Shown here: one piece after another, positions 3,085 through 59,139 of the stretch
How positions within the stretch are numbered: the first letter of the stretch is position 1
Layout of the letters: each line of letters starts with the position of its first letter
Origin: a virus
Strand: one strand, 5' to 3'
Virus record (IMG/VR): IMGVR_UViG_3300030329_003954
Span: 27,107 to 91,106 of that record
DNA: 64,000 bases
Notes under the pieces: generated by a model
Told to the model about the DNA's origin: nothing
Seen by the model: only the letters and a program-made list of their open reading frames with translations
The model's database searches: none
Made by a program: the position numbers and the translations under genes

Positions 3085-4320
3085 ATGTTACTCGTCGAGT
3101 GCAATGTTTTAGAAAAGGTAGAAGTTATTAATGAAGGCAAAGAGGGTAACACCCGCCTTCGTCTGCGAGGCAAGTTCCAACAATGCGATGAGCAGAACAA
3201 TAACGGAAGAATCTATCCTAGAAAGATTCTGGAGGGCCAAGTTAAAGCCATTCAGGAGAAGATCGGTGATCGCTCTTTAGTTGGTGCTCTCGATCACCCA
3301 GCCAATGATGCTATTCACCTTTCGCAGGCTTCCCACCTTATCACTGGTTTGAATGTTGCTAAGGATGGCTCCGTCATAGGTGAGTGTGAGATTCTCTCGA
3401 CTCCCAACGGCAAGATTGTTGAAGCTCTTATTAATGACGGTGTGAAGATTGGGATCTCCAGCCGTGGTGTCGGTAGTGTTACAGAGGGCATCAAGGGTAA
3501 GATTGTCAACGAAGACTTTAAACTTATCACGTTTGACCTTGTATCGGATCCGTCCACACGAGGCGCTTTCCCTGAGCTTTCTGAGTCTATGCGTGAGAAC
3601 AGTCAGCGTGCTCAAGAGATTGTCTCCAAGCACAAGAAAGATCGAGTTCTGCTCACCATGCTGGAGAGCAAGATCAGTGAGGCTTTGAAGGGCAAGCAGA
3701 AGAAGCTTGATAAGAACAAGAATAACAAGATCGATTCCGAAGACTTCAAGATGCTCAGAGGTGAAAAGAAAGATGACGATAGCATGGACGAAAAATCGTT
3801 TCCTGATTTAAGTGGTGACGGCAAGGTCACGATGAAGGACATCCTTATGGGCCGTGGTGTCATTAAGAAAGGTAAGAAGAAAAAGTCTATGGAAGAGGGG
3901 AGTATTAAAGATGATCCAGAAGCTTTCAAGAAAGCTAAGGCTAAAGCGAAAGCTAAAGGCCAGCAAACAGAAATGCCCAAACCCAAAGAAAGCATCGACA
4001 TTGGAGCGGTGGCAGTTGAAGGCCTAAAGAAAGTTTGCTGGGGTGATCGACACGATGAAGGCGAGACGAAAAGAATGAATAAGCGCAGAAGACAAGCCAT
4101 GGATACACGAGCCGGAGCACAGAGGCCAAGTCTTGACACGCCAGATACGGCCCGCTCAAAAGCTTATGATGCTCTCAAAGGTGACTTTAGTCGAGTGGCA
4201 AAATCCTACCTTAAGGCCAAGGAATATGGCAGAAGCGGTGAAGCAGCAGCAGCCAGAGCACGCGCTAGAGCGACCGGAGTGAGAGCACCTGTAAAGCCCA
4301 AAAAACGAAACAATCAATAA
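3085..4320 (+). CDS. gp21: Prohead core protease (T4 gp21-like) with long charged C-terminal extension
   Basis: N.NGRIYP, GALDHP, GISSRGVGS, FDLVSDPS motifs. Confidence 0.93.
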   Translation: MLLVECNVLEKVEVINEGKEGNTRLRLRGKFQQCDEQNNNGRIYPRKILEGQVKAIQEKIGDRSLVGALDHPANDAIHLSQASHLITGLNVAKDGSVIGECEILSTPNGKIVEALINDGVKIGISSRGVGSVTEGIKGKIVNEDFKLITFDLVSDPSTRGAFPELSESMRENSQRAQEIVSKHKKDRVLLTMLESKISEALKGKQKKLDKNKNNKIDSEDFKMLRGEKKDDDSMDEKSFPDLSGDGKVTMKDILMGRGVIKKGKKKKSMEEGSIKDDPEAFKKAKAKAKAKGQQTEMPKPKESIDIGAVAVEGLKKVCWGDRHDEGETKRMNKRRRQAMDTRAGAQRPSLDTPDTARSKAYDALKGDFSRVAKSYLKAKEYGRSGEAAAARARARATGVRAPVKPKKRNNQ

Positions 4321-4336
4321 ACCCAAGGAATGAACC

Positions 4337-4822
4337 ATGTCAAAACATGAAGACTATGACGATTACAACACCGGAAAGCAGACATTTATTGTGAAAGACG
4401 AAAAGGCAGCACTGAAGATGAAGCGGGAGGAGGCGAAAGCCGCCCGTGATAAGTATAAGGCTGTCGTAGCTCGCGAGAGAGAAGAAAAGGCTGCTGAACG
4501 TGCTATTCAAAGAGATAAGATTCAACTTGAATTAACTAAGCTGAAGCTGTCTCAGAGTGCTAGTGAGAAAGCTCGTACTAACATCGCTCTCACAACGCCT
4601 GCTCTTCTTGTTCTGTTGATTGGTGGCTTCATTGCCATGCTTGGCACAGGCTCTATCCCTGATGATCAAGTATCAGTTGCTTCAGCATTGTTAACTCTTG
4701 TAGCAACCGCTTTAATGCAAAACTTACGATCCATCGTGTCTGAAGGTGCTGCTGAAGCATCTGATGCCAATGGCAACGGTAATGGTCGTGATGACAAAAA
4801 GTCTAAGGAATCTAAGAAATGA
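4337..4822 (+). CDS. Membrane protein: coiled coil plus two transmembrane helices
   Basis: Hydrophobic segments PALLVLLIGGFIAMLG and VASALLTLVATALM. Confidence 0.6.
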   Translation: MSKHEDYDDYNTGKQTFIVKDEKAALKMKREEAKAARDKYKAVVAREREEKAAERAIQRDKIQLELTKLKLSQSASEKARTNIALTTPALLVLLIGGFIAMLGTGSIPDDQVSVASALLTLVATALMQNLRSIVSEGAAEASDANGNGNGRDDKKSKESKK

Positions 4823-5376
4823 CCGACAAGTCTAAAGTTTTAGACAAGATTGCAAAGGAGTTGGACAAGGCTGTCGAACTCCATGCCAGTCAAGCTAAAA
4901 GGATTAGAGCATTATTGAATAAAAAAAGCGAAGCCAACGAGTCTCTCATCTACGAAGACTTACGTAAATGGGTTCAACAACGCTGGGTTGATATCGGTGC
5001 TCCTAAGAAAGGTGGCGGTTTTAAACCCTGCGGTCGTCAAAAAGGTGAGAAACGCAAGGGGTATCCAAAGTGTGTGCCCGCTGCGAAAGCTGCTCGTATG
5101 AGCAAAGGTCAGAGAAGATCTGCTGTTAAACGTAAAAGAGCAGCAGGAAATCCAGGAGGTAAACCTACCATGGTTTCTACATTTAAGAATAGAGCTAAGA
5201 AAAGAGAAGCCTTTGAAAGGCTTGGTCAAATAATTGAAGGTAAGTTATGTCCTAAGGGAAAAGCTGCTGCGAAACGTAAGTTCGCTGTCTACCCTTCGGC
5301 ATATGCTAACATGTACGCTTCGGCTGTTTGTAGTGGCAAGGTAACCCCTGGAGGTAAGAAGGGTAAGAAAAAATAA
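4819..5376 (+). CDS. Basic Cys-containing phage protein, probable internal head protein
   Basis: EDLRKW...WVDI, PCGR...YPKCVP, YPSAYAN modules recurrent in T4-like phage hypothetical proteins. Confidence 0.6.
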   Translation: MTDKSKVLDKIAKELDKAVELHASQAKRIRALLNKKSEANESLIYEDLRKWVQQRWVDIGAPKKGGGFKPCGRQKGEKRKGYPKCVPAAKAARMSKGQRRSAVKRKRAAGNPGGKPTMVSTFKNRAKKREAFERLGQIIEGKLCPKGKAAAKRKFAVYPSAYANMYASAVCSGKVTPGGKKGKKK

Positions 5377-5426
5377 TTGGTATTAAAAACATACTAATAC
5401 CCTACATACCTACATAGAGGTTTAAC

Positions 5427-6080
5427 ATGTCGCAACAAAAAGATATTTTAGATTCGGTTGCTGAGTATCTTCCTGAGGGTCTGGATGAAAGCACCCTTGA
5501 AAAGGTATCTGAGCTTGTCGCTGTGATCATTGAACAGCGCGTCGAAGAGCAAGTTAGTGACCTGTCCACGAAGGTCCAATCTTTTATTCGTGGTAACATT
5601 GAGAAGCTGAAAGAGCAAGCCCTTAAAGAGCTTGAACTTGAAAACGAGACGTTCCGTAACGCTCAAATGTTCGAAACCGTCCGCTCGATGTTTGCACTAG
5701 AGAACACCCAGCAAGATGAAATGAACGGCATGGAAGTTCTCGCGTCCCTTGGCGAGCAGCAGGAAGAGAAGAACCAAGCTCTGCTCCGTCAGGTTGATAA
5801 GCTCCTTAAGGAGAACGTTAACCTGAAGCGTCAGTCTAAGGTCGCAAATGATAAGAACCAAAAGTTAGAAGAGGCTTTGCAAACAATCCATGGTGAAATG
5901 GAAAGTCTGCAAGAATCTAATAACGCTGAGAGGCAACTCTCGGAAACGGCACTGGTCATCAGTGAGGATAACTTCAAAGTGAAGGAAGCTGATGAAAAGT
6001 TAAATGAAAACCACGCTGGCCACGGTAATGAGTGGATCAATCAAGGCGTGTTAGCAAAACTCAACAGTTATAGAGGTTAA
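5427..6080 (+). CDS. gp22: Prohead core scaffold protein (gp22-like)
   Basis: Acidic coiled coil directly upstream of capsid gene; many LxE sites. Confidence 0.75.
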   Translation: MSQQKDILDSVAEYLPEGLDESTLEKVSELVAVIIEQRVEEQVSDLSTKVQSFIRGNIEKLKEQALKELELENETFRNAQMFETVRSMFALENTQQDEMNGMEVLASLGEQQEEKNQALLRQVDKLLKENVNLKRQSKVANDKNQKLEEALQTIHGEMESLQESNNAERQLSETALVISEDNFKVKEADEKLNENHAGHGNEWINQGVLAKLNSYRG

Positions 6081-6082
6081 TT

Positions 6083-7774
6083 ATGACCGCAATTGATAGA
6101 AACGATTTACTGAAGCGTTGGGAACCACTCCTTGAAGGTATCGGGGATGATCACATCGCGTACCAGACTGCTCGTCTCTTTGAAAACCAAGCCAAAGAAT
6201 TCACGAAGCAGACTCTGAATGAAGAATTAAGCCCTGCGGCTACGACCACAGGTAAGATCGGCACTTTCCAAAAGTTCGCCTTCCCGCTGATTCGTCGCAC
6301 CTACCCTGAGCTTATGTTCAACAAGATCGGTGCCACGCAAGCGATGGACGGCCCGGTGTCGCAAATCTTCTACATGGGCAACTCGCGTGCTCTGGGTGGT
6401 GATATCGAGCAAACGATGTACTCGAAGTTCAACATCACTCCGCGTAACCTGACTGCCACGAAGATTGGTTCTTACGATGGTTCTGCACCAAGTGAACTGC
6501 TCGATGATTGGACCACTGGTGGCACTTTTGCTAGCGGTTTACAAAACAGAGCTAGCACCAACTCAACCTCTAGCTTTGATAACGTCGCTTCGTCCTTCGA
6601 TCTGTCCAACGTTATCAGTGATGTGAACGGTTCGCCCTCGACCACGATGGGTGGTAAGCTTGCTTCGTTCCCGAGTGGCACCTCGATCCTGGGTTACGCT
6701 GTTTCCGCCGCTGAAAGGTTGAAGAGCAACGAGATTCCTGAGGTCAACCTGCACATCCAAAAGCAAACGGTTCAAGCGCGTGAGCGTAAGATGAGAGCCC
6801 TTTGGACTCTGGAAGCTGCTCAAGACCTGAAGGCTTACCACAACCTGGATATGGAAGCTGAACTCACGGATCTGCTGTCGAAGGAAATGAACCTTGAAAT
6901 CGACCGTGAACTGATCGAAGACATCCGCATGCTTGCTTACGGCCCTGCCGCTGTCGGCTCACTTGGTGGCTGGACTCTCGATTCGCTTTACCAAGGCGGT
7001 GCTGATAACTTCACCGGCATGGGTGGTACGGGAGCTAACAATACTGGCCCTGGTGGCACTTTTGTTGCTGGCGCTTACGAATACGACTTCTCGACGGCTC
7101 TGACCAACGAGGACAAGACTCCTGCTGGTCAAGGCGGTGGTATGGATCGTAAGTACTCGAACATCTTCGTCATGGACCTTAAGCAGTTCATTGAAGGTTC
7201 GCAGACCAACCTTCGTCCGAGACACCTCGGTGAAGTGTACTCGAATGTCCTTGCTCTGATTAACTTCGCGAGCACCGACATCTACAAGACGACCCTACGT
7301 GGGCCGGGTAACGTCCTGGTTTGCTCGCCTGTCATGGCGTCGATGCTGGAGTCGGCTGCGAAGCTTGAGGGTGGTATCGATCGCACTGAAGGTCCGACCA
7401 ACATGGGTGCCAACCAGATCTCTTACGCTGGTAAGTTCGCTGGTAAGTACGACATGATCATCGATCCGATGTTCCCAGAGGACGAAATCATTGTTGGCTA
7501 CAAGGGCAACAACGCGATGGACGCTGGCTACTTCTACTGCCCGTACATCCCGCTGCAAACTCTGGATACCGTTACGGATCCTGAGACCTTCCAGCCGAGA
7601 AAGGGCATCCTGACTCGCTACGGCAAGGTTGCGGTTCAACCCGCCTCGCGCTTCTACCGCGTCATTCGTGTTATCGGTCAAGGTAGTGACTTCCTCACGC
7701 CGCAGATCTTCAGAAACACGGGCCATGGTGGCACGGCGTTCGCTGGTGACTACGCTGTGGGTGGCGATCTCTAA
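6083..7774 (+). CDS. gp23: Major capsid protein (gp23-like)
   Basis: FPLIRR, RKMRALWTLEAAQDLKAYH, EIDRE, YCPYIPL, TFQPRKGILTRYG. Confidence 0.97.
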   Translation: MTAIDRNDLLKRWEPLLEGIGDDHIAYQTARLFENQAKEFTKQTLNEELSPAATTTGKIGTFQKFAFPLIRRTYPELMFNKIGATQAMDGPVSQIFYMGNSRALGGDIEQTMYSKFNITPRNLTATKIGSYDGSAPSELLDDWTTGGTFASGLQNRASTNSTSSFDNVASSFDLSNVISDVNGSPSTTMGGKLASFPSGTSILGYAVSAAERLKSNEIPEVNLHIQKQTVQARERKMRALWTLEAAQDLKAYHNLDMEAELTDLLSKEMNLEIDRELIEDIRMLAYGPAAVGSLGGWTLDSLYQGGADNFTGMGGTGANNTGPGGTFVAGAYEYDFSTALTNEDKTPAGQGGGMDRKYSNIFVMDLKQFIEGSQTNLRPRHLGEVYSNVLALINFASTDIYKTTLRGPGNVLVCSPVMASMLESAAKLEGGIDRTEGPTNMGANQISYAGKFAGKYDMIIDPMFPEDEIIVGYKGNNAMDAGYFYCPYIPLQTLDTVTDPETFQPRKGILTRYGKVAVQPASRFYRVIRVIGQGSDFLTPQIFRNTGHGGTAFAGDYAVGGDL

Positions 7775-50571: not shown

Positions 50572-51235
50572 CTCCTACGTCCAAGCTCTCTTAGTTGATA
50601 ACAAGGAGAGAATTTGGACCTGTGCCACTGAGATTGCAAATAAATTTAAATTGCAAGTTGTTGAAACCACTGGCAGCACACGAATTGTTTTAAAGAAAAA
50701 AGGGTCTCGCACCGTAATCAAGGTGGGTTATCCAAACCACAATAAGGCTGAATATGCTGCCTACAAAGCCCTAGAATGCTCTGTGTTGGGTGATCTCCTT
50801 GCTCCCTGCCTCGGAGTAAGCAGCGGAGGTTACGCTCTTGAGATGCAATTTATACCGCGTGCCTTCCCTCAAGCGAGAGGAGAATATTACTGGTTCAACT
50901 CAGACTTTTCAAAGATGCGGGATCGACTTGAAAGCCACTTCTCCTTCATTAAGGAGTATAATAATTACGCATGGGGCGCAGACTTTCACGAGGAGAACAT
51001 GCGTGTTATGCGTAAAGGTAATGTAAAGATCATTGACTACAGCAACTTATTGGCTGACATGTTTTCTCGTAGATCTCAGACAACTGTGCAAGGAGCTATC
51101 AAAGGTGTTCTTAAGCTAAACTTCCCTAAGGTTAATATTCAACTGACGATGAAGGATCGTATCATCTCTTATCAGGATAATGACGTTTCTTACAAGGTTC
51201 CTGTTTATCCTCAACGATCAAAAGCTATAATCTAA
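50540..51235 (+). CDS. Protein-kinase-like fold protein
   Basis: GSTR, VIKV, N..E, DFHEEN, IIDY. Confidence 0.75.
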   Translation: MASTNLLNRIDSYVQALLVDNKERIWTCATEIANKFKLQVVETTGSTRIVLKKKGSRTVIKVGYPNHNKAEYAAYKALECSVLGDLLAPCLGVSSGGYALEMQFIPRAFPQARGEYYWFNSDFSKMRDRLESHFSFIKEYNNYAWGADFHEENMRVMRKGNVKIIDYSNLLADMFSRRSQTTVQGAIKGVLKLNFPKVNIQLTMKDRIISYQDNDVSYKVPVYPQRSKAII

Positions 51236-51242
51236 GCATCAC

Positions 51243-51319
51243 GGGGTGATAGCTCAGTTGGTTAGAGCAGGGGTCTTATATACCTCAGGTCCCAGGTTCA
51301 AGTCCTGGTCACCCTACCA
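51243..51319 (+). tRNA. tRNA-Ile(UAU)
   Basis: Cloverleaf; GGGGT-CTTATAT-ACCTC; encoded CCA. Confidence 0.88.
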
Positions 51320-51320
51320 T

Positions 51321-51408
51321 GACAGTGTGGTGGAATTGGCATACACGACAGACTTAAAATCTGTTGACCATATCGGTCTTGCGGGTTCGAGTCCCGCCAC
51401 TGTTACCA
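51321..51408 (+). tRNA. tRNA-Leu(UAA)
   Basis: ACAGA-CTTAAAA-TCTGT; long variable arm; CCA. Confidence 0.93.
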
Positions 51409-51494
51409 TTAAGGAGGACTGTTGCGTGACTGCTGGATTTCCCTGGTCGTCAATCACAGGATACCTAAGCATGTATTCAAACTGCTTATTTTAT

Positions 51495-51570
51495 GCCTTC
51501 GTAGCTCAGTTGGTAGAGCAATCGGCTTTTAACCGATTGGTCCAAGGTTCGAGTCCTTGCGAGGGTACCA
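51495..51570 (+). tRNA. tRNA-Lys(UUU)
   Basis: ATCGG-CTTTTAA-CCGAT; CCA. Confidence 0.95.
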
Positions 51571-51591
51571 TACAATCAAGGAGTAAGTATT

Positions 51592-51792
51592 ATGAAGTTC
51601 ACACTATTAAGTGGAGTTAGAAAGTATGCTGAAGGCAACATTGCAAAGCATAGAGCAAATGTGCAAGCTTACCTCGATCACAGCGTAGCCATCGCAGAGC
51701 ACACTGACATCATTGAGTCGGTGGAAACTGAGTTGAAAAAGATTGCTGAGTATGAGGATATGCTAGACGTACTTGATAAATATTTCAGCTAA
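51592..51792 (+). CDS. Small T4-like phage hypothetical protein
   Basis: AAGGAG SD; G.I.KH.ANV..YL...V.I.EH.DI. Confidence 0.7.
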   Translation: MKFTLLSGVRKYAEGNIAKHRANVQAYLDHSVAIAEHTDIIESVETELKKIAEYEDMLDVLDKYFS

Positions 51793-51798
51793 CAACAA

Positions 51799-51874
51799 TC
51801 CTCAATAGCTCAGTTGGTAGAGCAGATGACTGTTAATCATCGGGTCGTAGGTTCGAGTCCTACTTGAGGAGCCA
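51799..51874 (+). tRNA. tRNA-Asn(GUU)
   Basis: GATGA-CTGTTAA-TCATC; GCCA end. Confidence 0.95.
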
Positions 51875-51877
51875 TTT

Positions 51878-51953
51878 GCCCGTCTAGCTCAACTGGCAGA
51901 GCAACGGTTTTGTAAACCGTAGGTTACAGGTTCAAGTCCTGTGATGGGCACCA
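51878..51953 (+). tRNA. tRNA-Thr(UGU)
   Basis: ACGGT-TTTGTAA-ACCGT; CCA. Confidence 0.95.
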
Positions 51954-52285
51954 CCTAATAAATAACTAAATAATTCAGGATTCAAGGTAGCAAGCTGCTG
52001 AATCATGTTGGATGTCATCGTGGTTAGATATTCGTTTGTCATCTGAGGGATTTGATCGTCGTGACCAAGTCCATAGATATCAAACCCAACGTGGCAGATT
52101 TCGTGTAGCAAAGTGCCCTTGTAATCCTCTATACTTTGGTTAGGATCGATAGTAATTAGTCCTTTGTGCATTTCCACACAACCGTGTAGTTCATCCTTCT
52201 CCAAGGACTGGAGCTTGATTTTGAAGGTTTTTATTCCAGTATGGAGTTCTAAAGGGTGAAGACGGTCCTTTGGCTTAACAGGCAT
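51932..52285 (-). CDS. HExxH metallopeptidase-like protein, paralog of 29172
   Basis: TLLHEICH...NE; upstream GTAAATA. Confidence 0.7.
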   Translation of the reverse strand: MPVKPKDRLHPLELHTGIKTFKIKLQSLEKDELHGCVEMHKGLITIDPNQSIEDYKGTLLHEICHVGFDIYGLGHDDQIPQMTNEYLTTMTSNMIQQLATLNPELFSYLLGGAHHRT

Positions 52286-52302
52286 ACATATATTTACCTC
52301 AT

Positions 52303-52408
52303 GGCAGTATCGTATAACAGTTATTACACCTCTCGTATTGACCGTCCAATGGCCTAATTACCTTAGACTAGAGAGGAGATGAAGGTGCGAATCCTTCTAC
52401 TGCCGCAA
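52303..52408 (+). ncRNA. tRNA-like RNA with 36-nt insert at the anticodon loop
   Basis: Acceptor GGCAGTA/TACTGCC; stem CCTCTC/GAGAGG; T arm GAAGG-TGCGAAT-CCTTC; ends G-CAA. Confidence 0.7.
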
Positions 52409-52567
52409 CCTTTTTTGCTCATTAAACCACTTTTGATTCCTTTTGACAGGAATTTGTGGTTCTGGCTGAATCTCAACCTTGGGCTCAGGCGTAGGTTTAG
52501 GCGTGGGCTTTATGACCTTTTTAGGAGGCTCACGCCTGAGCACAGTCTCTTCAACGTTGATTCGCAT
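52397..52567 (-). CDS. Small Pro/Lys-rich protein (56 aa, not in ORF track)
   Basis: TAATG-coupled; MRINVEETVLRREPPKKVIKPTPKPTPEPK... Confidence 0.5.
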   Translation of the reverse strand: MRINVEETVLRREPPKKVIKPTPKPTPEPKVEIQPEPQIPVKRNQKWFNEQKRLRQ

Positions 52568-53463
52568 TATGCGTGACGGTTTTTGTCGTATTCCGGCAGA
52601 CCCTCATCTTCTATAGGGTATCCAACGAAATATTGGGCCGTGGTGGGGAAACCATTGGGTAGGGGCGAAGCAAATTGACTCTCATTAGTAATCAAAGTGG
52701 CTACCTGATCAATAAAGGTATTCACTGGTAAGAACTCCTTGTTTGTGGCGTATACTCCTGGAATTTGGTAGGCGAGGTGAGACATCGTGGCGAACTCATC
52801 CCTAATTGAGGCGTTCCCGATAACATTAAAGGGAGCATTTTGCTGAGAAAAGAAGTTAAGATCCGTAAAGTAATTTGTGTTGTCATACCTCTCGTATTCC
52901 CGACCGAAGGCGGATGGAGTCGCACTACTCGTAATTTCTTTGAAAATTGCAAACGATGCTCCGTTAGATACCTTTGAGAATAATGGTTGAGAAGACACTC
53001 CTGTGTATGGGGTTCTTCTGATGAAGGGCTTAGTTGTGACAATACTACCCATTGGACCCATCGTAGATGCAGCGAGCGATCCGTAAGTTACACCGTTTGG
53101 ATCGCCAGACGTTGCGATGAGTGAAAACTCTTGCGATTGCTGAACACTAGATGAATTGAAGTTTTGATAAACGACTGCTGCATCTACAGTCGCATTGTAT
53201 TTATAGACTAGCTTAGTTGACTGTATGTTGCCGTGAGTGGTGGTGAGACCACTTAGTGTGGCATCACAAACGTTGTTAAATGACTGCTCCGAGGGGACTC
53301 TAACATACTGAATGTCTAACGTTTGAGTCTCGACATACCAAGGACCAGCGAACGCACTGATAGCGCCCGAGGCGATATTACCACTTGCCGCGACGAAGTC
53401 GTTGGTTCCGGCGGCAACCGTGTTCGATTGAGTTTGAGTATCTGCTGCTCCCTTGGATGACAT
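52567..53463 (-). CDS. Probable virion structural protein
   Basis: S/T/A/G-rich; upstream GGTAAATA. Confidence 0.55.
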   Translation of the reverse strand: MSSKGAADTQTQSNTVAAGTNDFVAASGNIASGAISAFAGPWYVETQTLDIQYVRVPSEQSFNNVCDATLSGLTTTHGNIQSTKLVYKYNATVDAAVVYQNFNSSSVQQSQEFSLIATSGDPNGVTYGSLAASTMGPMGSIVTTKPFIRRTPYTGVSSQPLFSKVSNGASFAIFKEITSSATPSAFGREYERYDNTNYFTDLNFFSQQNAPFNVIGNASIRDEFATMSHLAYQIPGVYATNKEFLPVNTFIDQVATLITNESQFASPLPNGFPTTAQYFVGYPIEDEGLPEYDKNRHA

Positions 53464-53553
53464 AATAAAATATAGATTGTTGGTTACTAATATTTACCCC
53501 CGAAAACAGGAACTAGATATTAAAAATATCCCATATGACGCTATAATACGAAC

Positions 53554-53715
53554 ATGAAGACTAGATACCGAAACCACAAGACAGTTCGCGATCAGGCAAA
53601 GGCCAAGAAGCTCATGGAAAAGCTTCAAAAGGAGATGCCTGATCGCACTTTTTCCATCAAGCGTCGTAAGTTCTGGCGCAAGGATAAGGTTAGATACACA
53701 GTGAGGAGCATATAA
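53554..53715 (+). CDS. Small basic protein (53 aa)
   Basis: TATAAT 6 nt before ATG; TAATG-coupled to next gene. Confidence 0.55.
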   Translation: MKTRYRNHKTVRDQAKAKKLMEKLQKEMPDRTFSIKRRKFWRKDKVRYTVRSI

Positions 53716-53876
53716 TGGACGATTTATCAAAAGATTATCTCTATCAAACCATGGAGTCTTTAAAGGATCTCTGTGATGCGGTTAATACTCAGGGGGCAAG
53801 AGACATCAAGTCTAGGCTTACTGACCTTCAGACCGATCTTAACAATCAAGACAATCCAAGACCGGAGGGCGGGTAA
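53715..53876 (+). CDS. Small hypothetical protein (53 aa)
   Basis: TAATG coupling at both ends. Confidence 0.55.
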   Translation: MDDLSKDYLYQTMESLKDLCDAVNTQGARDIKSRLTDLQTDLNNQDNPRPEGG

Positions 53877-54142
53877 TGAATGGCAAAGGTGACAATCGTA
53901 GAGAGAATGAGAAGGTAAACAACAAGAAGTTTGTGGACAATTGGGATCGCATCTTTGGGGGCAAGGAAGACGAAGTAGATACCTCTGACGTTGAACCATT
54001 CCACATCAGAAATGCTAGGCACCTGAAAATGCAAGATCTGGAGTTCAGGGAAAAGCTGGCAGAGGAGAAGCGTAGAAGAGAGCAAGAACTGTTCGATCGT
54101 CTCGATAAAGAAGTAGAGGAGGAGAACAATGATGAGAACTAG
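53876..54142 (+). CDS. Hypothetical protein
   Basis: GKGD..R...F.DNWDRIFG motif. Confidence 0.65.
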   Translation: MNGKGDNRRENEKVNNKKFVDNWDRIFGGKEDEVDTSDVEPFHIRNARHLKMQDLEFREKLAEEKRRREQELFDRLDKEVEEENNDEN

Positions 54143-54446
54143 TTTAATGACTGCGGTGTATGGTATTTTCATTGCCACCACTACATGGAACATAGTAAAA
54201 GCACCTCCATCCCGGCCACCAAATGAATTCTTCTACACTGAGGAGAAGACCAAAGATATTGAGGAAGTTCTGAACATGCGTCAGATCCTTAAAATGCAGC
54301 CTGCTTGGGACCCTACGATCCCCAATTCAAAAAGAACAAAGAAGAACGCAAAATGGACCTCGATCAAGCTTACAGATGGCTCTGTGGTGACTTTGAAGGA
54401 AGAGATGAAGAATGTCTTGAACAGGATGAGGAATGCACAACAATGA
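54129..54446 (+). CDS. Hypothetical protein with N-terminal TM
   Basis: GGAG SD. Confidence 0.5.
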   Translation: MMRTSLMTAVYGIFIATTTWNIVKAPPSRPPNEFFYTEEKTKDIEEVLNMRQILKMQPAWDPTIPNSKRTKKNAKWTSIKLTDGSVVTLKEEMKNVLNRMRNAQQ

Positions 54447-54634
54447 CTGGTGTGAAACCTGTAAAAATTGATGATGTAGTTGAATCATTGAATGAGCTTA
54501 AGTCTAAGCATGGGAACCTAGAAGTGCGTAGATTTGAGTTTCGTTACTCTCAAGAACCTTGCCCAGATGCCTACCCGAAGTTTTGTACAGTGCCTACAGA
54601 TAAGGGCAACACTAAAATAGTGGTGATACTATGA
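54443..54634 (+). CDS. Hypothetical protein
   Basis: ATGA overlaps at both ends. Confidence 0.5.
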   Translation: MTGVKPVKIDDVVESLNELKSKHGNLEVRRFEFRYSQEPCPDAYPKFCTVPTDKGNTKIVVIL

Positions 54635-54984
54635 CAACACAACTAAAGCCTTGGGGCACTCACAAAGTAGTTTTTGATAGAACTAACTTTAAAGTTAAAT
54701 ACATTTGCATTCAGAGGGGGCAAAGAATATCCCTCCAAAGACACAATAAACGTAGTGAGAATTGGGTGGTTGTGGAGGGTCACCCTATCGTCACCAAAGG
54801 TAAATCAACGGTCCTCTTAAATCCAGAGGATAGCATCTATATACCCTTGGGTGAGGTCCACAGGATTGAGGCTGATAGAGATGATGTGCATATTATTGAA
54901 GTTCAACACGGAATCTGTGATGAGAACGACATCGAAAGATTACACGATGATTACTCTAGGAGAATCAGCGGAGGGATAGCCTAA
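54631..54984 (+). CDS. Mannose-6-phosphate isomerase type II C-terminal cupin
   Basis: KPWG, SLQRH..RSE.W, HRI, IEVQ.G...ENDIER..DDY. Confidence 0.85.
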   Translation: MTTQLKPWGTHKVVFDRTNFKVKYICIQRGQRISLQRHNKRSENWVVVEGHPIVTKGKSTVLLNPEDSIYIPLGEVHRIEADRDDVHIIEVQHGICDENDIERLHDDYSRRISGGIA

Positions 54985-55346
54985 TGTATGAGTACCGGAT
55001 TAAGGAAATTACTCACTTTGTAGACGGTGATACATTCGATTGTATCATCGATCTAGGCTTCGATATCTTTCATGAGGTCCGAGTCCGAATGTATGGAATG
55101 AACACACCTGAGAGCCGTACAAGGGACTTGGAGGAGAAGAAAAAGGGCCTCGCGAGCAAGGCTAGGCTGATAGAGATTCTCACTGAAGAAGATGCGTATG
55201 ATCTTGTACTTAGAACTAAAGAGAAAGGTAAGTTCGGTCGGTGGCTTGGCACTGTGATAAAGCAGTACAAGCATCATGTTCAAGATGTCAACGAGCAGAT
55301 GATTGAAGAGGGCTACGCTGTTCCATATTTCGGGGGCAAGCGATGA
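54984..55346 (+). CDS. Thermonuclease (SNase-like)
   Basis: VDGDT, R.YG.NTPE, GKFGR.LG, N..MI.EG.A. Confidence 0.88.
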   Translation: MYEYRIKEITHFVDGDTFDCIIDLGFDIFHEVRVRMYGMNTPESRTRDLEEKKKGLASKARLIEILTEEDAYDLVLRTKEKGKFGRWLGTVIKQYKHHVQDVNEQMIEEGYAVPYFGGKR

Positions 55347-55570
55347 GCAAAGAGCCTGCAATGTTTGATGGGAAAGGTACCTGTCAGTATTGCGGTAAGC
55401 CCACCAGAGCCAAAGCTACCAGTTTGTGTAATGCCTGCTATAAATTAGATCTTGCTATCAAGAATAATCCCATTGCAGCGCAAAAAATTCTGAGAAATTA
55501 CACGGGTGATCCTATCATTGTAGGGTGGAAGAAGCCTTACCTAGGTATTAAACCCAAAGAGAATTCATGA
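55343..55570 (+). CDS. Zinc-finger protein
   Basis: CQYC...CNAC. Confidence 0.55.
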   Translation: MSKEPAMFDGKGTCQYCGKPTRAKATSLCNACYKLDLAIKNNPIAAQKILRNYTGDPIIVGWKKPYLGIKPKENS

Positions 55571-56124
55571 ACATATCAACAGTAACAGGACAACTCCCAA
55601 GACATCAATACGTTTGGATTGATACAAACTTCACACATAAAGAACCTCACGGATTTATTCCGGCTGTATGGTTTGGACTGGTAAGTATGCCAGCAAGAGT
55701 ATGGGGATGTACAGTAATGTTAGAGTGTGGAGCCATATACAGGAACCTACCACCACATGCAATCTCATTCGCAGAAGTGCCAAAGGAAAAGCAGTGGACA
55801 GAGAAAGATGCACAGAGATGGGACTGTTACGGACAGCAATTCCATGCTCACACATATGATTACCTGGATGAATTAGAATGCAAGGTAAGGACTAATGACA
55901 AGGAATTAGAGGGTGAATATATCTTTTCGGTAGCACCTGTAGGGGATGCATTCAGTCACTACCCAGATCAGGCAAAGGAGTTCACATTCATTAAGTTGAA
56001 GAACAATAGACTAACCATACAACCAACAGACTTCATAGTATTCCGCGAGAGAAGCTTCACAGACAACAAGATGGAATTCCCTAAAGGAATAAAGAGACAG
56101 AACAAGGTATACTACTGTGAGTAG
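55567..56124 (+). CDS. Hypothetical phage protein
   Basis: 185-aa ORF, ATGA overlap. Confidence 0.65.
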   Translation: MNISTVTGQLPRHQYVWIDTNFTHKEPHGFIPAVWFGLVSMPARVWGCTVMLECGAIYRNLPPHAISFAEVPKEKQWTEKDAQRWDCYGQQFHAHTYDYLDELECKVRTNDKELEGEYIFSVAPVGDAFSHYPDQAKEFTFIKLKNNRLTIQPTDFIVFRERSFTDNKMEFPKGIKRQNKVYYCE

Positions 56125-56160
56125 CAGTGTATAAATGAAAAAGGATACGTATATAAGATT

Positions 56161-56508
56161 ATGAAACGTTTACTAATTGGTATGATCACCGCACTTGTAC
56201 TTGCTGCACCGTCACAAGCACAAAAGCCTCAACGCCCTTCACCTAAAACAAGCTATGAGTTAATAATTGAGTGGAGAAAGGCTATGTCTGACCTCAAACA
56301 AGAGGTTGCTACCCTGAGAAAGGAAGTCGATATGCTTAAGCAAATGGCTCGTAGACTTCGTATGGAGAAGGGTAAAGAAGAAGGAAACAAAGAGAGATCT
56401 AGGAGAGGTCGTAGAGGTTCTAGAGGATCAGAGTCTAAGCCTGATATGAGAAGGAGAGGTATGCCTGAGATGCGTAAAAAGGGACCTATTAAGAGCAAAA
56501 AGGGCTAA
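56161..56508 (+). CDS. Signal-peptide coiled-coil protein with basic tail
   Basis: MKRLLIGMITALVLAAPSQA. Confidence 0.6.
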   Translation: MKRLLIGMITALVLAAPSQAQKPQRPSPKTSYELIIEWRKAMSDLKQEVATLRKEVDMLKQMARRLRMEKGKEEGNKERSRRGRRGSRGSESKPDMRRRGMPEMRKKGPIKSKKG

Positions 56509-56574
56509 GAAAGGTGCAATTAAGGATATAATCCCATTTGTAAGACTATTTCCCATATTTGAGATATAGTCAAT

Positions 56575-56612
56575 AAAAAAGACTTCCTATTCAATTACGA
56601 ATAGGAAGTCTT
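56575..56612. terminator. Terminator hairpin at strand convergence
   Basis: AAGACTTCCTATTC-AATTAC-GAATAGGAAGTCTT with A run on the left. Confidence 0.75.
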
Positions 56613-56962
56613 ATCATTTCTAGGGGGATGTGATTAGTTATATGTATGGCGCAAAGCTAATTACAACATTATTGCATAAAAGTCAAGCTAATTAAATGCC
56701 CTTGTAAGAAAAGTCAAGGTACAATTATTCGCAATCTTTTACAAATAAACTAAAAATGTATAGAATTAGGAGTACAATTGCTGCACACCTGTAAAATAGT
56801 TCCATGGTAATAAAAGTCAAGGTTTAATTATCACTTGAAACTCTGCAAAGGGACCATATTATAACAGCAATTGTAATCCACAATAAAATTGCAATTAAAA
56901 GACCGTATGGCATAAAAGTCAAGGTAAAAATAACCCCTTGCAAGAAAAGTCAAGGTATAAAA

Positions 56963-57039
56963 TGGTACACCCTATAGGAATCGAACCTATAACCTACGGC
57001 TTAGAAGGCCGTTGCTCTATCCAATTGAGCTAAGGGTGC
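56963..57039 (-). tRNA. tRNA-Arg(UCU)
   Basis: ACGGC-CTTCTAA-GCCGT; CCA. Confidence 0.95.
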
Positions 57040-57057
57040 CTATGCAGAAAAGTCAAG

Positions 57058-57288
57058 CTATAATAGCCTGCCCTGGGAGTAGATTTTACCCCTATCTGAG
57101 GGGGTTCCACACTTATCTAATGCTGTTACGGTCACCTCGTACCCATACTCACCGTATTTTTTCTTACCCATCCTACGAGCAAGAGAGATAGCTTGCGGAA
57201 AAGTCAAGCTCCAATCTTTCTCAACCTCCTCGAAGAGGACAGAGATGTTATTCTTGGCAAGGTAACACCATTCTATGTGATATCTCAT
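57058..57288 (-). CDS. Hypothetical protein
   Basis: GGAGG SD before ATG 57288. Confidence 0.5.
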   Translation of the reverse strand: MRYHIEWCYLAKNNISVLFEEVEKDWSLTFPQAISLARRMGKKKYGEYGYEVTVTALDKCGTPSDRGKIYSQGRLL

Positions 57289-57293
57289 AAAAG

Positions 57294-57458
57294 TCAAGCC
57301 TCCTCAAAAGCTTCTGATAGGGTTTGAGCGAGAGCGTAAACATGGTCCTCTACAGAGTCACCATCCTCAAGACGCTCGTAATAATCAGACTCCTCAGATT
57401 GTATCACATACTCTAAGAGTAAGTCAAGAGCCTGTTGCTGCTTGTAGTTTAATCTCAT
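57294..57458 (-). CDS. Small acidic protein (54 aa)
   Basis: TTGACT-N16-TATGAT-N6-ATG; MRLNYKQQQALDLLLEYV... Confidence 0.55.
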   Translation of the reverse strand: MRLNYKQQQALDLLLEYVIQSEESDYYERLEDGDSVEDHVYALAQTLSEAFEEA

Positions 57459-57500
57459 AGCTACATCATAACAAAGAAAAGAGAAAAGTCAAGGATAAAG

Positions 57501-57597
57501 GGTGGGGTCGGGATCAATGCTAGCCGATGCATCCTACTGAAAGATGCCCACCGTCATCTCGCCTCACTTTATTTTTATTCGTGTGAGACCTAACCGC
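57501..57597 (-). ncRNA. Putative structured ncRNA
   Basis: TTGACT-N15-TAGCTT upstream; hairpins GTCTCAC/GTGAGGC and AGATG/CATCT; loop GGTGGG complementary to 3' CCCACC. Confidence 0.45.
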
Positions 57598-57714
57598 TAG
57601 AAAGCTACGAAGAAAAGAGAAAAGTCAAGCCTTTTAGTGACATGCTCAGGTCTCAAGTGGACGCATAGCGCCGTGAACAGTTTTGGACATGTCGAGGTCC
57701 GTTAGAATGAGAAA

Positions 57715-57781
57715 CCCGACAGCGTAGCAGACACCAACTCTTTTAGCCTGATTTGTTGCAACGTGGTTATACGCTACCGGG
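57715..57781 (-). ncRNA. Putative structured RNA downstream of the mini-tmRNA
   Basis: 12-bp closing stem CCCGGTAGCGTA/TACGCTGTCGGG. Confidence 0.45.
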
Positions 57782-57784
57782 TAA

Positions 57785-57868
57785 TGGTGGAGCCGGTGGG
57801 AATCGAACCCACGTCCAGGATTGGCCCACATTGAGGTTTTCCATCCTGTCGAAACCATAAACAGCCCC
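57785..57868 (-). ncRNA. Mini-tmRNA (tRNA-like domain only, 84 nt)
   Basis: GGGGCTG-TTTATGGTTTCGAC-AGGAT-(21 nt)-ATCCT-GGAC-GTGGG-TTCGATT-CCCAC-CGGCTCC-ACCA; G3:U70. Confidence 0.85.
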
Positions 57869-57878
57869 ATAAAAAGTA

Positions 57879-58172
57879 ACACCCCACCGGACTTGACCCA
57901 GGCACGCACTACTGCTTACTCATGTAAGACTCCCACTTACAAGACTGGCACTTCGGCAGCGACGCTAGTCTTTTTAGTAGCTCTCTCGGCTACCCCGGAG
58001 TATGTCCCCGGTGAGGTGTTGGATTGTGAAAGAACTACGCCCCCATATACTGCTCACCGGGCTACGATTTCATCGGTTTGGTGAGAGACCCGAGAGGAGT
58101 ATCAGGCTGCGGCAGTTCTGGCTTCCAAAGGATTCATACGCTCCGCGCTTGCCTGTCCTACCCCTCTCGGGT
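57879..58172 (-). ncRNA. Putative structured ncRNA(s) upstream of the mini-tmRNA
   Basis: 14-bp stem (58088-58172), 9-bp stem (58007-58061), multi-stem junction (57879-58005); no credible ORF. Confidence 0.55.
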
Positions 58173-58181
58173 ATGTCTTCC

Positions 58182-58208
58182 ATTATACATATCTCACAGG
58201 GCTGTCAA
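58182..58208 (-). promoter_or_regulatory. Sigma70-like early promoter
   Basis: TTGACA-N15-TATAAT. Confidence 0.75.
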
Positions 58209-58233
58209 CCCAGGGAATCGAATCTTTTCTAAA

Positions 58234-58313
58234 TTGATGTAAGTGCTTGTGAATAAAGGACTTATGGCCGTCGCGGCGGCCCGCCCCAAACCCTTTATTT
58301 GCAAGGGTTTACG
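58234..58313. repeat. Double-palindrome cassette repeat R1
   Basis: 25-bp TAAGT-N15-ACTTA, 22-bp GC spacer, second 25-bp imperfect palindrome. Confidence 0.85.
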
Positions 58314-58338
58314 GCTGGCAGTTAAAAGTTAGAGCGGA

Positions 58339-59139
58339 CTAGTTCATCCGCGAGGCCCAGTCCTGGGTGATGGCCCAGAGTCCTTGGTTCCAGTCCGTGT
58401 CGGCCACGATGTTCCGACGCTCACGCACACGGCGCAGGCGGTTGTTGGCATCGGGCACCTTGAAGCCTCCACGGGTGCCGTTCTCCTGCACACGGTTGAA
58501 CACCGACCACAGATCGTTGGGCATGTCGTCACGACGACGAACCTGGAGCAGACCCGAGACGATGCGATCGTCTACGTTCTCCTCGGGATCAAGCCCGAAG
58601 CGCAGACGACCAGCCTCGCGGGCAAACTGGCGAACGTCACCGTCCGACAGGCTGGTGCCTTGGCACGTCTCAGCGAAGCCAAACAGGCCAGGAGCCGCAT
58701 CGATCGCACGCTGCACAGCAGCTTGCGTGTCCTCGTTGATACGGTCGTGCCGGATCTTGATCGTCTCGTTGGCAGCACCGAAAGGTGCGATCATGCCGTT
58801 CTCGCACACGAGACGGTAGAGGCCGACAGCCATGATGAACGTCGATGACCAGTTGCCCGAGTTCACGATGTTAACCGTGGGGAAGATCGACCCGAGCTTA
58901 CGGGTGTCGCCATTGTCCGTAGGCATACGCATGGTGATGCGGTGCTTTTGGAAAGCCTCGTTGCCAGCGGTGCGCTTCTGCGTCTTCTGCTGGCTTGCAG
59001 ACTTGATGGTGAACCCGTCGCTCATCATCTGCTCGACGATGTCGGCAGTGCGGACGTGCTGGTATCGGTCGCTGACGTGAGGAGCAGGCGAATCGGAGAA
59101 GGCCGCAGGGGCCACAACTTGCAGTTCTTGGAGATCCAT
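58339..59139 (-). CDS. DUF932/DUF945-family protein
   Basis: VSDRYQHVRT, KHRI..R, GLYRLVCENGM, LWSVFNRVQEN. Confidence 0.85.
   Translation of the reverse strand: MDLQELQVVAPAAFSDSPAPHVSDRYQHVRTADIVEQMMSDGFTIKSASQQKTQKRTAGNEAFQKHRITMRMPTDNGDTRKLGSIFPTVNIVNSGNWSSTFIMAVGLYRLVCENGMIAPFGAANETIKIRHDRINEDTQAAVQRAIDAAPGLFGFAETCQGTSLSDGDVRQFAREAGRLRFGLDPEENVDDRIVSGLLQVRRRDDMPNDLWSVFNRVQENGTRGGFKVPDANNRLRRVRERRNIVADTDWNQGLWAITQDWASRMN

Follow-up and report, generated by a model that had tools for sequence, protein, structure and literature searches.

The DNA window analyzed here comprises the final 64 kb of an IMG/VR virus record that measures 91,106 bp (IMGVR_UViG_3300030329_003954; completeness ~77%) and carries, at positions 52303–52408 of the plus strand, a tRNA-shaped element in which a 36-nt insert takes the place of the anticodon loop. 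A preliminary description of the window had noticed the element and had likened its body to tRNA-Asp. Comparisons with related contigs and with bacterial tRNA genes revealed that (i) the element is a real, selected and discrete tRNA-shaped RNA gene, not a product of chance or decay; (ii) judging by its D arm, it is best described as a tRNA-His-type scaffold and not as a tRNA-Asp-like one; and (iii) it has no canonical anticodon loop, which makes a decoding role implausible on sequence grounds. The best-supported reading is that of a non-decoding tRNA mimic, as already proposed in the preliminary description, but derived from tRNA-His; to this we give about an even chance; the chance of any particular target of such a mimic would be much lower.

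The element and its insert were found on 6 IMG/VR contigs, through a neighboring gene that encodes an HExxH protein (described below) and through exact words, and on at least 8 marine metagenome contigs (TARA and JGI marine). Seven distinct element sequences, hereafter called variants, and 9 distinct flank contexts were recovered. An insert confined to this genome, together with an unexpressed RNA, had been named in the preliminary description as the mark of a pseudogene; the insert is shared among genomes, and the view of a selected tRNA-shaped gene is upheld.

From 5′ to 3′, the element is composed of the acceptor strand GGCAGUA, UC, the D arm GUAU-AACAGUUA-UUAC, AC, the stem strand CUCUC, the 36-nt insert, GAGAG, GAGAU, the T arm, the acceptor strand UACUGCC, G, and CAA, and it extends from G1 to the discriminator G73 at 52405, after which CAA follows. 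The acceptor stem (52303–52309 paired with 52398–52404) has 7 Watson–Crick pairs and is invariant in 7/7 variants. The 18-nt segment consisting of U8, C9, and the D arm (UCGUAUAACAGUUAUUAC, 52310–52327) is likewise invariant, and the D arm, written as DNA GTAT-AACAGTTA-TTAC, has 3 pairs and a U·U. The anticodon stem is formed by CCUCUC (52329–52334) and GAGAGG (52371–52376) and has 5–6 bp, with 36–38 nt between its strands compared with 7 nt in a normal loop. The T arm (GAAGG-UGCGAAU-CCUUC, 52381–52397) has a loop one base off the UGCGAUU of the host-type tRNA-His described below. When no structure was supplied, RNAalifold predicted the same cloverleaf from the 7 variants, with the insert (52335–52370) folded into 2 hairpins that lie side by side and meet the anticodon stem in a compact three-way junction. 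These are hairpin 1 (AUUG/CAAU with the loop ACCGUC, 52337–52350), which is invariant, and hairpin 2 (GG(C)CUAA/UUAG(A)CU with the loop UUACC, 52351–52369). All parts listed in the preliminary description (the 7-bp acceptor, the D arm, CCTCTC/GAGAGG, the T arm with TGCGAAT, G-CAA, and the 2 hairpins of the insert) are present at 52303–52408 (+).

Default tRNA searches pass over the element. ARAGORN in default mode did not call it, and the Rfam tRNA model RF00005 did not match it at the gathering score or at E values up to 10. With introns allowed, a check that had been suggested from the start, ARAGORN called a tRNA(att) with a full cloverleaf and a 29-nt intron (52341–52369), and when the genome was shuffled locally, 1.82 Mb of the resulting sequence gave the same mode 0 calls. 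Homolog covariation, another suggested check, bears out the cloverleaf: 96% of the pair cells are paired across the variants, compared with 34–48% when the partners are slid by 1 to 3 columns. Compensatory changes occur in 4 pairs, one in the anticodon stem, where U–A changes to C–G with one C·A intermediate (the L043 variant), and 3 in the T stem, where 3 of the 5 pairs are replaced together (GAAGG/CCUUC vs AUUGG/CCAAU); none of 500 shuffles reached the covariation score. In contrast to these T-stem pairs, the pairs of the insert hairpins have no two-sided change in the 7 variants; the G·U to G–C change of hairpin 2 in L005 and L007, located at one of the 2 variable sites of the insert, is one-sided and consistent with pairing.

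The conserved stretch runs precisely from G1 to position 73 and is set in flanks that vary among the variants; upstream of it, the sequence is unrelated in L005 and L071. Residue 73 is A in 6 of the 7 variants and G in the window copy alone, so that G73, which had been counted among the features of the body, is not a family trait. Downstream of the element, 3 contexts were observed: encoded ACCA followed by a strong hairpin-plus-T-run terminator (L003 and L007); a plus-strand CTATAAT-N6-ATG gene start ~25–45 nt 3′ of the element (the 5 variants L038, L039, L005, L043, and L055); and, in the window, a T run (52411–52416, plus strand) directly 3′ of the element and at the same position as the terminator of L003 and L007, which is a possible plus-strand transcript end and was not called by the terminator scan. 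The bounds of conservation, these downstream contexts, and T and D loops that are meaningful only in the tRNA orientation favor a plus-strand RNA that would be the last gene of a tRNA cluster.

The insert is kept more strictly than the stems around it. Across the 7 variants it has only 2 variable sites, and it is identical to the window copy at 34–36 of 36 positions (36/36 or 34/36 in the more distant variants), compared with 56–64 of 67 positions for the tRNA body. The HExxH gene of the more distant variants shares 79–80% identity with that of the window overall and 55–56% at third codon positions; the element is kept more strictly than the surrounding genes. By inspection, the insert has stop codons in all frames of both strands, and therefore overlapping coding does not explain its conservation. 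On these comparisons the insert is under selection at the sequence level, behaving like the invariant loops and unlike the stems, and simple decay is excluded.

To trace the origin of the scaffold, 241 million metagenome records and a genome set with one representative of each GTDB species were searched for the 18-nt D-arm word. In the genome set, only tRNA-His was returned: the D arm is identical (18/18) to that of the chromosomal tRNA-His(GUG) of 7 Pelagibacteraceae species (L077, L078 (984–1058), L079, L081, L082, L084, and L085), and the T loop agrees at 6 of 7 positions (UGCGAAU vs UGCGAUU). In 4 such genomes, tRNA-His is the only tRNA with this D arm, with up to 3 mismatches allowed, and the covariance model of the element (R1) placed tRNA-His at the top with 47–51 bits, followed by tRNA-Phe with 36 bits. 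The likeness to tRNA-Asp gives way to these matches. No tRNA with the acceptor stem of the element was found in 4 Pelagibacteraceae genomes, and with 1 or 2 mismatches allowed, a further 60 genomes of the family and 60 of the genus gave no match to the D arm. On metagenome contigs, the insert-free tRNAs with the same D arm and the UGCGAUU T loop were many tRNA-His(GUG), one tRNA-Pro(GGG), and one phage tRNA-Gln(CUG).

The Pelagibacteraceae tRNA-His has G1·U72, A73, and no G-1; its D arm (GUAU-AACAGUUA-UUAC) is without G18G19, and its T loop has G at position 55. The gene is accompanied by tRNA-Phe, a gene of the histidyl-tRNA synthetase (HisRS) family, hisD, rnpA, and yidC, with the HisRS-family gene and hisD directly after it. 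From this correspondence, the oddities of the D and T loops are a lineage trait of working tRNAs, and the atypical T loop is not a sign of degeneration. The small Pelagibacteraceae (SAR11) subgroup is likely to supply the hosts of the phage, an assignment made from the tRNA arm alone, and the copy of a rare tRNA-His arm turns it into a testable host prediction.

Compared with these tRNA-His lacking G-1 (the delta-G-1 or RRCH/SAR11 type; L077–L085), the element has the identical 18-nt segment from U8 to C25, a near-identical T loop, a 4-nt variable loop that ends in AU in both, A73 in most of its variants, and G and A where G37 and A38 would be. By contrast, the element differs in the sequences of the acceptor, the anticodon stem, and the T stem, its first pair is G1–C72 instead of G1·U72, GUG is absent from the loop region, and 36 nt stand for 5 loop bases. 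Most SAR11 strains belong to a clade whose tRNA-His has A73 and no G-1 (PMC3937112). In Caulobacter, the anticodon and U72 are the major determinants for HisRS, and any change of the anticodon or U72C cuts charging of the tRNA lacking G-1 by ~90- to 1000-fold (PMC3064791). Because the element has C72 and no GUG, it would, by analogy, be a poor HisRS substrate, and its histidylation is unlikely.

Two side observations concern the same D and T loops. In the tRNA-Phe genes beside tRNA-His (L049:298–372 and L054:33–107), the D-loop sequence GUAGUAG occurs with the T loop UGCGAUU and GUGGUAG with UUCAAUU; what looks like a G18-to-A18 change coupled to a U55-to-G55 change hints at an elbow contact that covaries. 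The 18-nt D arm also recurs in a tRNA-Gln(CUG) on an unrelated viral contig of 107 kb (IMGVR_UViG_3300025838_000023, 3370–7716), which has several oversized tRNAs besides, namely those for Asn (93 nt), Thr (88 nt), Met (86 nt), and Ala (80 nt), 3 of them with a T loop of the G55 type.

The element has no canonical anticodon loop, which would be 7 nt long, contain U33 and a purine at position 37, and be closed by a 5-bp stem. In the covariance-model alignment, the anticodon stem of the host tRNA-His lies on columns 27–31 and 70–74. In this tRNA-His register, the innermost C–G pair of the element corresponds to positions 32 and 38, and the 36 nt replace bases 33–37. No excision yields U33, since C32 is followed by G and the 36 nt end in ACUA, and neither hairpin of the insert provides a 7-nt loop with U33. 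The ARAGORN solution adds a sixth stem pair relative to tRNA-His and leaves the loop GUAUUGA, with G32, A34, and G37 next to U36; tRNAs for codons starting with A carry A37. The resulting AUU anticodon would also duplicate the tRNA-Asn(GUU) of the phage itself. The earlier statement that no clean splice leads to a canonical loop is in keeping with both registers, and the excised product GUAUUGA is, as far as its sequence tells, not a credible decoder.

If the element encodes a mimic, a stable RNA that does not decode, its scaffold would derive from the unusual tRNA-His of the small Pelagibacteraceae subgroup, and it would probably be transcribed from the plus strand, last after the phage tRNA cluster, with RNase P and 3′ processing enzymes presumably excising it and a CCA end being given or left. 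Of the tRNA, the L-shaped body with its acceptor stem, its D and T arms, and the elbow between D loop and T loop would be retained, while the 36-nt, sequence-constrained three-way-junction domain would preclude normal presentation of an anticodon to the ribosome. We infer a molecular mimicry in which the tRNA body would secure tRNA-like maturation and recognition and the new domain would bind a specific partner or block an anticodon-dependent step, so that the mimic would titrate or redirect a host or phage tRNA-handling factor. The exact copy of the rare tRNA-His arm suggests a tRNA-His-specific handling step as a point of conflict between phage and host.

Several points weigh against this reading. 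The window copy has G73 and CAA, not ACCA. No candidate for a dedicated binding protein was found in the 91-kb record, and the neighboring genes are not consistently linked to the element. The family is narrow, consisting of 7 close variants without a distant homolog, and the insert hairpins are thus without covariation support: R1 matched neither the genome of Pelagibacter phage HTVC008M nor 4 whole records of HExxH relatives (57–69% identity); neither the element nor the host-type tRNA-His had a blastn match among 50,697 phage records; searches with a 231-aa neighboring protein and with the tRNA-Thr sequence returned the same close clade only; and a 17-mer of the insert gave a single unrelated match in coding sequence (L035). 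Recombination, which is visible between variants, could exaggerate the apparent conservation of the insert, and near-invariance is, by analogy, a property of the tRNA introns of Lak phages as well (PMC6784885). The remaining points are those that speak for an intron. According to this explanation, the chief rival, 29 nt (52341–52369) would be removed by a route that is neither group I nor bulge-helix-bulge (BHB), joining 52340 to 52370 (CUCGUAUUG joined to AGAGAGG) and giving a 77-nt tRNA with the anticodon AUU. We regard it as unlikely. ARAGORN, with its 0 calls in 1.8 Mb of shuffled sequence, puts the insert at 37/38, the classical intron position, and leaves U33, a purine (G37), and A38, and G37 and A38 are also residues of the host tRNA-His; however, this placement, a formal fit only, requires the sixth stem pair relative to the homologous tRNA-His, and the product is unorthodox on 4 counts (G32, the A34 wobble base, G37 after U36, and the six-pair stem) besides duplicating a phage tRNA. 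The AUU anticodon pairs with AAU of hairpin 1, in parallel to the anticodon–intron helices of eukaryal pre-tRNAs. Published phage tRNA introns also have near-invariant sequences (PMC6784885), whereas no insert-free allele was found here among the contigs that share the D arm. No BHB motif was seen by inspection, since neither UAGA nor AGAC before the 3′ bulge has a complement in GUAUUGA. A group I intron, which had been discounted from the start, is ruled out: the insert measures 29–36 nt compared with ~200 nt or more for group I, has no group I core, and matched neither Intron_gpI nor any ribozyme family in Rfam at E values up to 10. The insert is predicted to be a three-way junction and not one long hairpin, hence a poor substrate for RNase III. 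As for enzymes, the phage record gave no splicing endonuclease or ligase match (RtcB, Rnl2, RNase III, and EndA were searched; the Rnl1 search was also without a match but matched no control genome either and is hence uninformative), and RtcB was matched in one of 61 sampled host-family genomes (G016:C1:135791–137023, 135.7 bits); the missing enzymes may lie in the absent part of the ~77% complete record. That the insert is a new kind of intron, excised and rejoined in SAR11 cells, seems to us quite improbable. If it were so, the absence of RtcB, Rnl-type ligases, and splicing endonucleases from cells and phage, as far as searched, would imply a tRNA-splicing route new to description and so far unknown in bacteria, in the most abundant bacteria of the ocean, and a tRNA with a tRNA-His body and an AUU anticodon could recode AAU codons during infection.

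Two further explanations deny the element the standing of a functional tRNA-like RNA. It could belong to the minus strand, as part of the HExxH mRNA (a structured leader or an intergenic element) or as a DNA site for protein binding or recombination, with its tRNA likeness being a fossil, which we hold to be very improbable. The window genes that flank the element are on the minus strand, and the ribosome-binding site of the HExxH gene starts 3 nt from it, but the HExxH gene lies ~340 nt away in L005, the upstream flank is unrelated in L071, and HExxH relatives at 57–69% identity (26 loci) have no tRNAs and no tRNA-like element nearby. The minus-strand fold is no less stable (−32.9 kcal/mol, z = −2.3), and the C·A mismatch of L043 would be a G·U pair on it; the U·G pair of hairpin 1, on the other hand, would become A·C. 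A scan for promoter consensus sequences beside the element was negative for both strands, with no sigma-70-like promoter on the plus strand. However, conservation is bounded precisely by G1 and N73, the ends of the tRNA; the loops of the T and D arms, whose sequences have a meaning only in the tRNA sense, are invariant; and downstream stand ACCA and a terminator working on the plus strand in 2 variants and a plus-strand gene start in 5. The other explanation, scarcely credible in our estimate, is a decaying pseudogene, that is to say, a captured tRNA-His that was broken by a small insertion and is carried along with the tRNA cluster. Rejection by the default tRNA finders, the loss of the anticodon, and the absence of an encoded CCA from the window copy would all fit decay. 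Against this stand the 4 compensatory pair changes without any stem-breaking substitution in 7 variants, the invariance of the loops and of the insert (apart from its 2 variable sites) while neighboring synonymous sites are near saturation, and the presence of the element on every contig that carries the same tRNA-Thr.

Among known systems, 2 small stable RNAs of phage T4, RNA C and RNA D, have tRNA-like ends. They come from the tRNA region, are also called species 1 and 2, and have an unknown role (PMC3014915). The element resembles them as a putative small stable RNA encoded in the tRNA region of a T4-like phage, being placed at the end of a tRNA cluster, but differs in having retained the whole cloverleaf together with a tRNA-His arm specific to the host; the two are likened by description and not by sequence. 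A second parallel is found in the window itself, where an 84-nt transfer-messenger RNA (tmRNA) tRNA-like domain with G3·U70, an encoded CCA, and no tag-coding part lies on the minus strand (57785–57868). It scored 75.1 bits with the Rfam tmRNA model, model positions 1–374 being spanned in 84 nt, and it accords with the earlier remark that the window holds 2 anticodon-less tRNA mimics. The tRNA-like domains of tmRNAs, including this one, are similar to the element in having an acceptor and a T arm, a replaced anticodon arm, and a phage-borne gene. By contrast, the element has no Rfam tmRNA match, C3–G70 in place of G3·U70, a real D stem, and no conserved tag frame, its only stop-ended frame losing the stop in L005 and L007. 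By analogy, the T4 RNAs and the tag-less mini-tmRNA are the nearest parallels. YrlA (RF02553) and tLRNA motifs are also non-coding mimics of a tRNA body without decoding, but YrlA has a permuted topology in which its ends lie in the Ro-binding stem, whereas the element has normal tRNA ends and no Rfam match at E values up to 10. The "enigmatic" tRNA introns of Lak megaphages are short and near-identical across samples (Devoto et al. 2019, PMC6784885). Like the insert, they are short non-group-I insertions in the anticodon loop of a phage tRNA with a near-invariant sequence; unlike it, they leave a standard tRNA of assignable identity when excised and occur beside alleles that lack the intron, whereas here the product would be non-canonical and the search gave no insert-free allele among the contigs that share the D arm.

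The usual view of phage tRNA genes is that they serve as codon supplements or as nuclease-resistant spares, and the element, which has no usable anticodon, can be neither. It is a well-bounded addition, from uncultured marine phages, to the poorly understood phage tRNA look-alikes such as T4 RNA C and RNA D and the tag-less tmRNAs.

Other identities for the element and its insert were tried and rejected. An Rfam scan of 50800–58400 at E values up to 10 returned over the element only a chance match to SpF41 (25.6 bits, E 1.2), and no ribozyme, riboswitch, YrlA, or tmRNA match. A mini-ORF or tag was considered, the insert having AUG-GCC-UAA and also a frame of 9 codons; in L005 and L007, however, the stop of the longer frame is lost, and a Shine–Dalgarno sequence is absent. 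Complementarity between the insert and the phage genome was limited to 9–10-mers, not beyond chance, and its longest Watson–Crick runs with Pelagibacteraceae 16S and 23S rRNA were 6 and 8, which 149–200 of 200 shuffles matched. The 7-mer AUUACCU, common to the insert and the 3′ end of 16S rRNA, is at chance level and is lost in 2 variants. The idea of an aminoacyl carrier was tested by a search for FemAB-type transferases, which found none in the phage record.

The phage encodes a tail sheath and thus a contractile tail, a ribonucleotide reductase, and a ClpB-like ATPase. Its sheath protein shares no more than 35% identity with that of any cultured phage, HTVC008M being among the best matches; by this measure the phage is related to cultured phages only distantly. 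Upstream of the element on the plus strand lies a cluster of standard tRNA genes (51243–51953) for Ile(UAU), Leu(UAA), Lys(UUU), Asn(GUU), and Thr(UGU), which is also found on most related contigs that reach that far. A sixth standard tRNA, Arg-UCU, lies further right in the window on the minus strand. All 6 tRNAs have an encoded CCA, whereas the element of the window has none. The 350-nt spacer between tRNA-Thr and the element holds, in antisense, the 117-aa HExxH gene (51932–52285, minus strand; Peptidase_M78/IrrE-like by a weak Pfam match), which is a conserved neighbor in most variants. At its 3′ end it shares 22 nt with the end of tRNA-Thr, and the gene would be fully antisense to the plus-strand tRNA transcript if that transcript reaches the element. 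Among the proteins of the neighboring genes, RNA-related matches were limited to one SNase-like protein. On the contigs of L003 and L007 (L037 and L040, respectively), the ACCA is followed by an A run, a GC-rich GGCUCCC...GGGAGCC hairpin, and a T run, an arrangement that looks like a bidirectional intrinsic terminator.

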